From Giardia intestinalis (taxonomy: Eukaryota): a DNA stretch of 64,000 nucleotides. The position numbers are program-made. Location of the stretch: NCBI GenBank assembly GCA_000002435.2, contig CM018793.1. One strand, written 5' to 3'. This document shows positions 45,001 to 51,000 of this stretch, piece after piece. Positions within the stretch are counted from its first letter, which is position 1. The number at the start of each line of letters is the position of its first letter.

Positions 45001-48000
45001 TGCCCCCAACGCCCTCGATCGTGGACAGGACTTCCTCCGCGCCATAACCCTCGGCTTTGAGGTCCAGGACGCTCTTGCGTTTCTGAAAATGGACAATCTC
45101 TACATAGACACCTTCGACATCACTAACGTAAAGCTTGTCCTTAAGGGCGATAACATGTCCCGAGCGATAGGAAGGATAGCGGGCTCCGGCGGCAAGGTCA
45201 AGTTCACCATTGAGAACGCGTCGAAGACACGGATTGTGCTAGCAGATAAGACGGTGCACATCCTGGGCACCGTGGCAGGTACCCGTGTCGCCCGCGATGC
45301 TATATGCGACCTCATTTTGGGGCTTTCTCCAAACAAGGTCTATCAGAAGCTGAAGATGGCTGCAAGCCGCTTTTCCTAATCCGAGTCGTGACGCTGTGAT
45401 GTGTATAAATGAAAAAAAACTATTTATTTTGATTTCGTTTTTGATGTCTGTTTTTGAAGCCCCGTGAACGCACCGGGGAATGGTCAAGTACGCCTTTAAA
45501 TCGGACAATCTCCTCGTAGGAAAGTCCCGCAGGGACGGCGTCAAGGCCTCCTTCAAGAACACATACTCCACCTGCAGAGCTATCAAGGGAATGGGGGTCA
45601 AGAGAGCCTTTGCCTACCTCGACAACGTCCTGAACCACAAGGAGATCGTCCCCTTCTTCAAGTTCTACAAGGGTGTCGGGCGCCACTCGCAAGCCAGGGG
45701 GAGCGGCACGGACAAGGGTCGCTGGCCCGAGAAGTCTGTTGTCGTCGTCAAGGACATCCTCAAGCAAGCCGTTAGCAACGCAAAGCACGCCCACAAGAAG
45801 GAGGAGGACGAGCTGTACGTCATCTCGTACTGCGTAAATCGCGCACGCGGCCGTCGTCGCAGGACCTTCAGGGCACATGGGCGCATCAGCAAGTATGAGT
45901 CTCAGCCCTGCCATGTCGAGCTTATTGTCGGGCCGAAGCCTCTGGACGTTGAGAAAGCGAAGGCGCTCCAGTGAGTCTGTCGGGAGTAAATGCGCTGCTT
46001 CTTCCCAACTTCTAATAATTGAAATGTCTAATGTGGGGTACATTCCGATTTCGGCCCTTCCCGTGGCCCAGTCTGCGGTAACACCAACAGAAGCGTTTTT
46101 TAATCAGTTCACTACGCAGACGAGGTATGAGTTGAACGGGCCTGCAGTCTCCATTGCTAGACATCCCCAGGCGGCCGAGCTCGCCGTAGCTAGCTCCACA
46201 CAGGTTATGCTTTATAAGGTTTCAGAGGCAGCGCTTGCAAAGGGTACTGGCCGCTTTGAAATGACCACCACAGCCGTAGCCTATCGCCACGACGGGGCCT
46301 TTTATGTTGCGGCAGATGATAGCGGAGCAGTTGAAGTTTTCATACCGGGGTCCCACTCTTGGCAGCGACGCTTTTACGATTCATCCACTGCAGTCCATGC
46401 AGTTTCGTTCAGCGCCACCGACCAGGAAGTCTTGGCCGGAACTCGCTCCGGAAAGCTTTTCGCGTGGACTGTGACGACCGAAACTCTCTGCTTTGGAGTC
46501 CAGGCCCATGCCGATTCTATCCGTGCAGCGTTCCCTCTTCCCTCCCCACATGCAGCTGATCATTTTGCCCCAGTTCTCACAGCTTCCTATGACAGATACA
46601 TTCGGATATGGAATATGCTGTCCGGCGAGATAGCTCTCGGTGTGTCTGAGGATCCCAAGCGTCGTAATGCTGTTGGTCGATCGGGCACAGGCCCCTCCAT
46701 GCTCTTTGAGTACTCTCTTTCAGAACCAATTGATGCCGCAATCTGGTGCGATGGATATGTCTATATAGCATGTGGTGGATACATCTACTCTTTGCTTTAC
46801 GTTTATACCGACTTGTCGCTATCAGAGGATAACAAGGATAACAGAGGTTCAGTCAAGCTAAAAGCCCACGCTCAATCAGACTATGTTCCTAAGGGAATAT
46901 CGTCCCTATGTGCATGCTCCACTAGCATGGGGACATTCATTTTGGCTGGCTGCTTTGATGGGGGTGTCAGGGTTTATGACTCCACGACTCTACTGCAGGT
47001 AGCAACCCTGATACACTTTGATGTAGCGGTCCTCTCTATAGCTGTTCAGTCTTTTTCACAGACTCCAATATTTTCCAAGAAGGAGGAGCTGGGAATATAT
47101 GTGGGACTGCAAACCAAGACCATGGTGGTGCTGACGTCCTGTCCTCTGGAGGATGCCATTGCCCTTGCAAATGAGAAGGACAAGCCAAAGCAGCGCCTAT
47201 CAAAGAGAGACTTCATGATCCGTCCACGAGCAAATCTAGATTACATGGTCCATGGGTTGAACGTTAGACCATCTTTGTCCCAACTGGATGTCTACTTGGC
47301 AATCTACAAACATCTGGATGCACTGCAGCTGAGTCTCTTGACCAGCAGGGAGCTCACAGGAAGCGTTCTTTTGGAACTAGAATGCCGCGGAATTAAAAAC
47401 TATCACGATGTACTTAGGCAACTTCGAGATGGGGATAAGGCAAAGATACTTGAGTATACAATGAGCTCCCTTGGAAATAACATGCTCTGTGGTCCGTTCT
47501 TACGTGCATGCGACGTTATAATCCCCACAATAACGCTATCTTCAAGCTCTAAGCTTCTGCTTACTGTACACGAATTTCTGATGACCATAGAGAAGGAACT
47601 GGAGCTCATCGAAAACCTTCAACAGTGTCGGAATAACCTTTGTTCACTAAAGATTTGATCTTCCGATGCCACTGTAGATGCTAACTGTAGGCACATCTTA
47701 CTTTTAGAACAGCAAAATGTTCGACTCACATGCATATATGGAAGGTGGAAACGCTCTCAACAGCTCCGAACTGTGCGAGGTAGTTCAGCTCTTTGATATT
47801 CAGTGGGCCACAGCTACTCTCCAGCAGGGCATAGTTACCGCTCAAGTGGAATTTATTATTACCTATCCATTCTTCAACACGATTATCTGGAGGTGTGAAG
47901 GATTCAACCATGAGACAGTTGTTGATGGAGTGTTAGGGAAACATCATCTGACTTTATATTTCCAGAAGCCTACAGTGTCTGTTGGTCGTTCTACTACTAC

Positions 48001-51000
48001 TGACACCACTCCGCTAAATCCCATCGAGATCTCTGGATCATCTGCTGTAACACAGAGCATGTACTCCAGCACACTAGGTAGCTCCACAGATCACTTTGAC
48101 CTTGAGCTGGATATTCCTGGCCTTCTTATCGAACCAGTCTATATAACATTTGTTTGTAGCGGAAGGAACCTCACTGCCATTGCGCCACATCCAGGATTTG
48201 GAAGAGTGTCTACTATCATAAACCCAGGTGGCCGCCCATTGCTAACCAGCGACTACAAGAGTGTTGTTCTGGACCCAGACATTTGCTTCCGCGACTGTTC
48301 TGCTTACATGGTAGACATGCTCCAGCCTCAACGCGTGGTCTCGCTAGGCACCAAGAGTGGCTCGGGAAAGACCTTCGGCCTTTCAATGTTGGAGTCTTTT
48401 ATCAGCACCACTGCACCCGCTAAAACTTTGCAGTCATTTGCTAAGTTAGCGATCAGGGGCTGGTCTCAATATGACCAGCATCTTGGAGCCCATTCTGTCC
48501 TGAGCCTTGACTTTTCAGTATTCAAGGTGTCGAGTACCAGTGCATTTTTCGAATCTATCGCTGCATACGTTAGAAGCGTTTACGAATCATGGTACGAGCG
48601 GTGTGCTCCGGCGCTGACTGATGAACGGAGCCAAAGGATATTCGTTAATATCATGAGGAACACGGATGCAGAGGGCTGTCAAAACTTCAAAACAGGTTTA
48701 TTCGGGTCGTTTGCAGAGTTGTGCAGGTTTATCTTTAGGGCCACGCGGCGCCATCCCGTAGTACTTATTGACGGCTATGATTCACTAACACGAAAGCTAT
48801 GGTTTGCTCCCCATGACACCCTGAGGCAGATATTGCCGATGGTGTCGCTTATATTAACAGCGACAGTCACAGAGAATATGTGTAAGTACTGTGCAGTAGT
48901 AGCAGGAGGCAATGACCCACCAGTGTACGGGGGCTTTGGTTACGTAAATTCCCGATCACTGAGGTGTAGCCCAGAAATACCGTTGCATGGGAACTCAGCG
49001 TCTAAGGAGATTCAAAGCCTACAAGGCTCTCTTGTGGGTCACGAGAGTGGAGAGCCGGCAGCAGATGTAAGAGAAGAGATTGTCGGAAATTATATGGAGC
49101 GTAATTAAGTAAATGGGAAATATCACAGCCGTGGATTTGAAAAGGAATGAAGAAAGGGATTAGTCTGATACGCTGACCAAATATGGATAGATAAGTCGGT
49201 CAATTATTAGTAGAGTCTATTATCCGAGGGGTTGTGAGAGGCTCTGCCTCGGGCTGTAGTGATACCAAGCCCAGCATGGAGTTGTATAGATCGCTCCTGA
49301 CGTGCAAATTCCAATGGATGCTTTTCAGATACCAAACACACATTTCTCTTACGGTACTAGACTCATCAAGACAGCGGGAGAACGCTGGCCACACAGAGAA
49401 AGGTAGCTCTAGATCCGAGAGCATATTGCACGCAAACATGAGGCTGACGATGAAAAGCTTCTTTACATTGCGCACTGTAACATGCCTAGAGATCTTCTGA
49501 AGCCGTAGTAACAAAGTACATGCATAAACTGCGATGGTTTTCAAGTCCTCATCAGAGCACTTACTGATTAGGTAGAAATTCGATAGAACCTCGTGCAGAT
49601 CTAGCTTGAGCGTGTGCTGCACATCGGCACCACAGACCATTGACAGAATTAAGCACACATCCCTAGTGATCCGAAGGGGTGCAGACTCAGGCATGACCTG
49701 GGGCTAGCGATAAATTTTAAAAGTACCAGAGGCTATGAACGACGCTCTTTCCCTTAGAGATGTGATCGCAAATGCGTTTACAAACTCCTCGGGGAAGTTG
49801 CTCATCGACACGTTGATAATGAACTATGTCCAATGTGTTCTAGAGAATACCTTAGATACAGACGCAGACAGTATCAGCAGGGCAACACAGACCATTGCTC
49901 CTGTAATTCACAATTGCAGAGTAACAGCTTCGCTTGATGAGGCCGAGGAGATAGTGACAAACCTCGTTTGCGAGGTCTGCTCCCTGATAGCGACTCATGG
50001 CCGAGACTCCGCAGTGAGCTTGCGACTAGATGATGCTGTGTCCGTTTCACAACAAGTACAACGAGCCGCGGCCAATAATGAGTATTGGAAGGGGATACAA
50101 ACAGCAAGGGACTTAGGAATGCAGAAGCTCCAATTCCAGATGATAAAGTCGTCAGAAAAAGCACGTGCACTAGCAGAGAAGCGTCGTCTAAAGGAAAAAC
50201 ACGTTAGCAAGGATGAAATCCCTGCAGCAGACAATGCTGTCAGTATCTCTCAGACAAAGTTTGTTCCTCGCACGGGGCAGGCCATCAAGCTCGATAGGGT
50301 TACTCTGGCATATGGAAAGAATATCCTTTTAGAGGATTGTGACTTTACTTTCCATTTTGGGCGACGATACTCGCTTATTGGTCGGAATGGCACGGGAAAG
50401 TCGAGTCTCTTGCGAGCTATTGCGCACGGAGAGATTGCATGCATCACCAATAGAGACCAGTACAAGATACTCTACGTGTCACAGGAGGTAGCGCCATCGA
50501 CCGACAGGGTCATCGATGTCGTGTTGTCGGCCAATGAGGACTATGTCAGGCTCACCACTGCAGAGCACGCCATCAAGGCTGCCATAGATCTCCTTGAAGA
50601 ACATCTAATGCGTCTTCGTAGTGCCTCTCATGGGAGCTCTTCTCTTAAGTCCGAACATTCCGCTTCTCGCACGTTGAAAGGCTTGCTTCCAGAGCATGTC
50701 TTGACTGAGCTTAATGCTAGCATTTTTCCAAGCATAAGTGTGGATACTTCCGCCGCACTTAATGCTTCTGCGACAGAGGCGCTTTTGGACAATCTCGGGG
50801 TAGCTCTCCAGCAGCGATACGACGAGATGGAGGCAGCTGATCTGTTCAGTGCACAGGCACGTGCATCGCAGATATTGGCGGGGTTGCAATTTACACCAGC
50901 AATGCAACTCAGACGCACCAAGGAGTTTTCAGGTGGTTGGCTCATGCGTGTAAGCCTTGCTAAAGCACTTTTTGTAGCTCCAGACATACTCTTCCTTGAT

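Follow-up and report, generated by a model that had tools for sequence, protein, structure and literature searches.

The 64,000-nucleotide stretch of Giardia intestinalis contig CM018793.1 (GenBank assembly GCA_000002435.2) that we analysed, referred to below as the window, carries at positions 47717-49108 of the plus strand a complete gene encoding a protein of 463 amino acids (aa), stop codon following. The product belongs to the PF09820 "predicted AAA-ATPase" family (DUF1703). We lean towards regarding it as a truncated, single-copy and vertically inherited Giardia derivative of this family, which would bind nucleotide with little or no hydrolysis, would serve as an adaptor or switch and would go back to an old bacterial transfer. 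What is new is its anatomy: although the ATPase-nuclease family is mostly bacterial and functionally uncharacterised, this member is eukaryotic, has dispensed with nuclease, lid and presumed catalytic residues, and carries a lineage-specific domain in addition. The gene has been under housekeeping-level constraint since before the split of G. duodenalis and G. muris.

Family assignment

The window represents G. duodenalis assemblage A. The encoded protein is 99% identical to a cluster containing ESU39159.1 and XP_001707603.1 (WB isolate; UniProt A8BE72), and the whole gene (47717-49108, plus strand) is the ortholog of the G. intestinalis WB gene for XP_001707603.1/A8BE72, "AAA-ATPase like protein". 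NCBI and UniProt give this name to both the WB and the G. muris proteins, and because public annotation already carries it, the family call in itself adds nothing new. Literature searches returned nothing for the accessions of the gene, for Giardia combined with "AAA-ATPase like", or for the function of PF09820/PF08011.

PF09820 (AAA-ATPase_like) is the sole Pfam match of the protein (38.5 bits, E = 1.4e-9, residues 187-365; curated gathering cutoff 26.1 bits), and the G. muris ortholog exceeds the same cutoff independently, with 39.8 bits. Comparison of a Giardia-only with a bacteria-only alignment by hhalign matched residues 171-398 of the former to 16-234 of the latter, with a probability of 99.0% and an E-value of 6.7e-18. 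When a Giardia-only profile was run against 1.84 billion representative sequences, the top non-Giardia matches were strong PF09820 members. Conversely, a bacteria-only hidden Markov model (HMM), applied to the open reading frames (ORFs) of all six frames of the window, matched this ORF alone (61 bits). The membership in the predicted AAA-ATPase family that had been suggested in the original prediction is thus borne out.

Related families gave no such matches. Pfam models for NACHT, NB-ARC, ORC/Cdc6 and generic AAA proteins did not match the whole protein at E≤1, and no significant match placed it within the STAND, NACHT or ORC-Cdc6 groups (PF05729, PF00931, PF13191, PF01637, PF13401 and related profiles). 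An NCBIfam search yielded noise only. One review places PF09820 under RADAR; searched by sequence, the PDB yielded no relative, RdrA included, whether the query was the protein alone, the Giardia profile or the profile of the bacterial family. None of the anti-phage defence models of PADLOC-DB v2 matched the Giardia proteins or four family members from outside Giardia, canonical ones included, at E≤0.01, and Foldseek returned nothing from the PDB at E≤0.001.

Domain architecture

According to Knizewski et al. 2007 (PMC1913061), DUF1703 proteins are composed of an AAA+ α/β domain, a four-helix lid, a helical region and a C-terminal PD-(D/E)XK domain. The canonical bacterial members that we recovered are 555-560 aa long and match both PF09820 and PF08011. 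The Giardia protein covers match columns 9-248 of the 537-column family HMM. It has in common with the family only the α/β ATPase domain (residues 171-398, positions 48227-48910 of the plus strand, which also carries all features below unless otherwise indicated), with the family helical insert between β2 and β3; it has neither the lid nor the helical region nor the PD-(D/E)XK nuclease. The last element of the domain is β4, the strand at the sensor-1 position (CAVVAGG, residues 392-398, positions 48890-48910), and hhalign aligned nothing past residue 398 with the bacterial sequences.

The ATPase domain is followed by the extension NDPPVYGGFGYVNSRSLRCSP (residues 399-419, positions 48911-48973), which is mostly conserved in the G. 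duodenalis lineages, with few variable positions, and is not conserved in G. muris. It may be a remnant of the SGLNN/β5 segment of the family. Beyond it lies a fast-evolving acidic tail (residues 420-463, positions 48974-49105), in which G. duodenalis and G. muris share no more than the short motif P-x-x-D-V-[RKH]-E. PF08011 did not match the whole protein at E≤1, and the isolated tail had no match in Pfam, PF08011 included, at E≤10. A MAFFT alignment that spread the Giardia tail over the bacterial PD-(D/E)XK region was rejected as an artefact, because hhalign and hmmalign leave the tail unaligned and the tail evolves fast.

The structure was predicted with AlphaFold on a 126-sequence alignment; the five Giardia sequences alone gave an unusable predicted local distance difference test score (pLDDT) of 35. 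Residues 399-463 are modelled as disordered, with pLDDT below 30 in the acidic tail. At the other end of the protein, residues 24-168 are modelled as a Giardia-specific β-sandwich. Its first half (residues 24-86, positions 47786-47974) comprises five predicted β-strands and holds the motif FD[IV]QWATA, while its second half (residues 124-168, positions 48086-48220) would add three more, at residues 124-132, 141-148 and 151-155. A Ser/Thr-rich, disordered linker (residues 87-123, positions 47975-48085, pLDDT below 50) interrupts the sandwich between the two halves, and a conserved INPxGxPL motif lies at the junction of the domain. Residues 1-186 had no match in Pfam at E≤10.

In the G. muris ortholog (locus L006, 8001-9533) the linker is about 75 aa longer and Pro-rich, and in lineage P0004 it is partly deleted. 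The N-terminal extensions of two family members, P0020 and P0024, the nearest partners of the Giardia proteins in the tree described below, were considered as possible homologs of the N-terminal domain and discarded: they are of low complexity, presequence-like and devoid of a β-sandwich.

Active-site residues

The Walker A motif, or P-loop, GTKSGSGKTFGL (residues 211-222, positions 48347-48382) includes K218 and T219 and is invariant across the G. duodenalis lineages. Walker B, VVLIDGYD (residues 348-355, positions 48758-48781), follows at a spacing of 134 residues from K218 to D352. The original prediction had located the ORF, the P-loop and an hhhhDGYD Walker B motif about 135 aa further on correctly. 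Its description of the P-loop as "textbook" needs to be qualified: GK[ST] is present, and the strict pattern [AG]xxxxGK[ST] is not, because T212 occupies the position six before K218 (glycines stand at K-7, K-3 and K-1). In Walker B, D352 is followed by Gly353, whereas AAA+ proteins and the family (LIDEYD) have an acidic residue there.

For DUF1703, Knizewski et al. 2007 (PMC1913061) described Walker A as RPRRFGKS and Walker B as DEYD, and proposed that Arg2 and Arg3 of Walker A substitute for sensor 1 and sensor 2. Aligned with the family, the Giardia Walker A reads K-S-G-(gap)-S-G-K-T; GK[ST] alone is retained, and Arg2 and Arg3 of RPRRFGK[ST] are Gly or deleted. The Walker B Glu, more than 90% conserved in the family, corresponds to Gly353. 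The family segment TGILRVAKE after β4, with its conserved Arg, has no counterpart in the Giardia protein, and the sensor-1 position is occupied by Gly, as in the rest of the family. Kept in the retained domain are G217-K218-T219, D352, Y354, D355, N387 and G397, and D352, Y354 and D355 are invariant in all 126 aligned sequences. Judged by its sequence, the protein would not possess the set of features generally associated with catalysis in AAA+ proteins (Lys, Asp-Glu, polar sensor 1, Arg finger and lid). Since the presumed catalytic Glu of the family and two arginines of Walker A are missing, a straightforward active NTPase is probably not what the gene encodes.

Conservation and selection

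The gene order PNO1 (KH)-uL22-WD40-this gene-small minus-strand ORF-ABCF is shared by assemblage B, two other G. duodenalis-type lineages and G. muris, and five lineages retain an uninterrupted reading frame. Ratios of nonsynonymous to synonymous substitution rates (dN/dS) were calculated by the Nei-Gojobori method from four G. duodenalis-type lineages and are approximate, synonymous divergence (dS) being saturated (>1); for the whole gene they amount to 0.07-0.11. The ATPase domain, at 0.04-0.055, comes near the neighbouring WD40 (about 0.05) and ABCF (0.02-0.04) genes. Values of 0.08-0.11 were obtained for the N-terminal domain (about 0.09 for its second half), 0.13-0.49 for the linker and 0.14-0.53 for the tail. 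GC content (0.477) and GC content at third codon positions (0.478) match those of the neighbours. The heptamer AGTAAAT (49108-49114) overlaps the stop codon and fits what we take to be the Giardia polyadenylation consensus, AGTRAAY.

The synteny, the low dN/dS, the native composition and the polyadenylation-type motif exclude that the gene is a pseudogene, was mis-called or was transferred recently. The loss of catalytic-type residues and a length below that of the family are what might be expected of a functionless, decaying relic; yet such a relic, or a mis-called ORF, is barely credible for a frame that has stayed open in five lineages at dS above 1 and under the constraint given above, that is conserved as far as G. 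muris and that has a polyadenylation-type signal at its stop codon.

Copy number, distribution and origin

In the exhaustive profile search of the 1.84 billion representatives, EukProt entries included, Giardia was represented by one G. duodenalis cluster and one G. muris cluster (229 bits), and the next match scored 64 bits or below. The six-frame search with the bacteria-only HMM found no second copy in the window. Nameable among the distant matches were proteins of a whitefly (Bemisia tabaci), a fungus (Mycena pura) and a Lachnospiraceae bacterium, the rest being unnamed metagenomic proteins. No other metamonad appeared among the named matches, most matches carrying no name, and no human homolog of this Giardia-restricted protein was found in these searches. 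The search for the family accepted 7,721 of 8,000 candidates, and those of the top 120 that bore a name were all bacterial, so that the description of the family as largely bacterial in the original prediction proved sound.

The original prediction also had the family unusually expanded in Giardia and often paired with a PD-(D/E)XK nuclease domain. An expanded group of bacterial-type ATPases that work with such a domain would agree with the canonical bacterial architecture, PF09820 plus PF08011 (PMC6387759). Membership of the Giardia protein in a group of this kind is nevertheless very unlikely: it contains no nuclease domain, no Giardia paralog was recovered, and its gene is flanked by those for a WD40 protein and an ABCF protein and by a small conserved ORF. 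Neither the expansion nor the pairing is supported, given the single cluster per species, the lack of a second copy in the window and the negative searches of the tail.

A neighbour-joining (NJ) tree of the ATPase domain recovered the Giardia sequences as monophyletic in 200 of 200 bootstraps, with support for a sister group of at most about 24% and an identity of 23-25% to all other sequences. The closest relatives adjoin AbiEii and ankyrin genes, KfrA and an integrase, or a serine recombinase. Bacterial acquisition before the split of G. duodenalis and G. muris is plausible and the most economical reading of these sequences; it would be old. Any lateral acquisition must predate that split, because the gene order is shared with G. 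muris. To this extent the candidate lateral acquisition of the original prediction stands, and neither a compositional trace nor a supported sister group could be added to it.

Alternatively, the gene may be an old eukaryotic one, inherited vertically without any lateral acquisition and patchily distributed through loss elsewhere. Its position deep in conserved synteny, its native composition, the presence of the family in Mycena pura and Bemisia tabaci, and a tree without supported nesting of Giardia inside any bacterial clade are all compatible with such a history. We regard it as improbable, since no match fills the interval between the 229 bits of G. muris and the next 64 bits in the 1.84 billion representatives, EukProt included, all named proteins in the top 120 family matches are bacterial, and the eukaryotic occurrences are isolated.

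The nearest NJ partners were also considered as eukaryotic sequences; this was rejected, their neighbourhood being prophage or integrative-element-like. Four family proteins from a single assembly, ERZ28496113 (P0013, P0059, P0020 and P0024), have Arg/Ser/Ala/Pro-rich, presequence-like N-termini. Three loci of this assembly (L011 1889-6087, L012 756-3119 and L013 10001-12328) resemble prophages or integrative elements and contain a serine recombinase, DUF2924 and AAA_24. The four proteins may act as bacterial effectors that are secreted or directed to a host.

Proposed history and role

We propose that a bacterial ATPase fused to a PD-(D/E)XK nuclease was transferred long ago to the stem lineage of Giardia. 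Lid, helical region and nuclease would then have been lost, leaving the α/β nucleotide-binding domain alone, and the composition would have become fully ameliorated. A Giardia-specific Ig-like β-sandwich would have been added at the N-terminus. The residues expected to hold the nucleotide and Mg (G217-K218-T219, D352 and D355) would have been kept, and those presumed to act in hydrolysis (the Walker B Glu, Arg2 and Arg3 of Walker A, and the Arg after the sensor-1 strand) given up. Because binding residues are kept and presumed hydrolysis residues lost, we infer a weakly or non-hydrolysing, nucleotide-binding switch or adaptor, whose β-sandwich and acidic tail may recruit partners, rather than an ATP-driven nuclease.

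The joint behaviour of these residues in the family, and the pairing of degenerate with canonical copies, support this role. Over 98 domain instances, a sample skewed towards Giardia-like variants, Arg3 and the Walker B Glu vary together: both are present in 68 and both missing from 25, with only 5 mixed cases. The Arg that follows sensor 1 is mostly lost in the same instances. In doubled proteins of about 1,100 aa (P0006, P0007 and P0033), copy 1 is degenerate and copy 2 canonical; by analogy with tandem AAA+ proteins, non-catalytic partner modules would be expected to show just this arrangement, in which a degenerate copy is joined to a canonical copy.

STAND NTPases with a Walker B of the hhhhDGhDE type use an alternative catalytic acid. 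The Giardia protein might likewise be an ATPase or NTPase that is active by means of a variant site, in which D355 of D-x-Y-D would be the catalytic acid and the protein would cycle between nucleotide states, possibly as an oligomer. We consider this possible, though not probable. It is difficult to reconcile with G. muris, in which the Walker A Lys is replaced by Arg (ASGRT; GRT in place of GKT) and Walker B reads LLVDRYD, with Arg at the position of the family Glu. Nor is there a lid with sensor 2 or a candidate Arg finger in the Giardia protein, and where bacterial proteins are doubled, the variant copy is paired with a canonical one.

Several points weigh against the non-hydrolysing adaptor of bacterial descent that we prefer. 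The "catalytic" status of the Glu and the arginines is assigned by analogy with AAA+ proteins and by the 2007 prediction. The invariant D355 could be an alternative catalytic acid, as in STAND NTPases, and the P-loop, strictly conserved among the G. duodenalis lineages, would suit catalysis as well as binding. Many of the sequences in the co-variation sample were picked by their similarity to the Giardia protein. For this bias and the possible role of D355, an active ATPase keeps a sizeable minority share of the probability. The model of the N-terminal domain was built on six sequences, and its pLDDT is only moderate. Finally, the low support for any sister in the NJ tree and the occurrence of the family in a fungus and an insect make the direction of the proposed transfer uncertain.

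A more specific role can be offered as speculation, and we hold it to be a long shot. Following capture of a bacterial mobile-element ATPase-nuclease in the stem lineage, domestication and fusion with an ASF1-like β-sandwich might have produced a lineage-specific adaptor associated with chromatin or ribosome biogenesis, with no counterpart in other eukaryotes. The association is suggested because the nearest fold to the modelled N-terminal domain is that of a histone chaperone and the gene lies in the conserved PNO1-uL22-WD40-ABCF block.

These findings address no long-standing open question. They provide an example of a bacterial-type enzyme module domesticated into a probably non-enzymatic role in a reduced parasite, and the active site of DUF1703, so far uncharacterised, may be illuminated by the joint loss of Arg3, the Walker B Glu and the Arg after sensor 1, a clue that can be tested.

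Neighbouring genes and other features of the window

The gene stands alone of its kind among housekeeping genes, as had been noted before, with a WD40 protein upstream and an ABCF-type protein, composed of two ABC_tran domains and ABC_tran_Xtn, downstream. The upstream neighbour had been called UTP15; no UTP15-specific Pfam model is among its matches. Its mechanically called ORF (45877-47658, plus strand) overlaps the uL22 gene (45480-45974), and 544-aa orthologs imply a start at 46024.

Between the gene described here and the ABCF gene there is a 164-aa ORF on the minus strand (49200-49694), which belongs to no Pfam family and keeps its syntenic position in every Giardia lineage examined. Its dN/dS of 0.04-0.06 marks it as a genuine, conserved gene. 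The G. muris counterpart (locus L006, 9508-9963) overlaps the 3′ end of the AAA-ATPase-like gene by 26 nucleotides.

Further downstream (52130-54187, plus strand) is a gene for a Cys-rich protein of 685 aa with EGF-like repeats and a C-terminal transmembrane segment, which resembles the high-cysteine membrane proteins of Giardia. The other G. duodenalis-type lineages have this gene in synteny; in G. muris the ABCF gene is followed by one for a CFAP43-like giant protein. Two segments of the window, 6001-10000 and 14001-18000, have a GC content of 0.59-0.60, compared with about 0.46-0.50 elsewhere, and coincide with large ORFs at 6053-8260 (minus strand) and 14926-17082 (plus strand).

Comparison with known systems

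The nearest solved fold to the modelled N-terminal domain is that of the ASF1 histone chaperone; the likeness is structural only, with no sequence match to PF04729. Structures of the ORC/Cdc6-STAND-like type (mS29/DAP3, the archaeal PF01637 ATPases 2fna and 2qen, BrxC, Apaf-1 and Cdc6/Orc1) align with the Giardia protein at 8-16% identity and have no sequence match to it, and their winged-helix and lid domains are absent from it.

The closest known system is DUF1703 itself (PF09820 plus PF08011; PMC1913061). The Giardia protein has in common with it an N-terminal FxDxS segment, a P-loop helix of the form GK[ST]-LSML, the helical insert, a Walker B of the form hhhhD-x-Y-D, an xxEN motif and an xxTG/AGG strand. 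It differs in having about 170 extra residues at the N-terminus, in being without the lid, the helical region and the nuclease, and in missing Arg2, Arg3 and the Walker B Glu. Against the Pfam PF09820 model it scores 38 bits, whereas the non-Giardia members scanned reach 89-261 bits. The Giardia gene is eukaryotic, single-copy and placed in a housekeeping rather than a mobile-element context; an expansion of DUF1703 proteins has been described in Cardinium (PMC6387759).

Within the family, the nearest parallels are degenerate PF09820 modules such as P0011 (SGSGKS / IDGYN) and the first copies of P0006, P0007 and P0033. The NJ tree gave no supported specific relationship between these bacterial modules and Giardia. 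They show the same loss of Arg3, the Walker B Glu and the post-sensor-1 Arg as the Giardia protein, and P0011, like it, is also without PF08011. In contrast to the Giardia gene, the degenerate modules are bacterial, lie in mobile-element or effector-like neighbourhoods and are in many cases fused or adjacent to a canonical copy, and the N-terminal domain distinguishes the Giardia protein from all of them.

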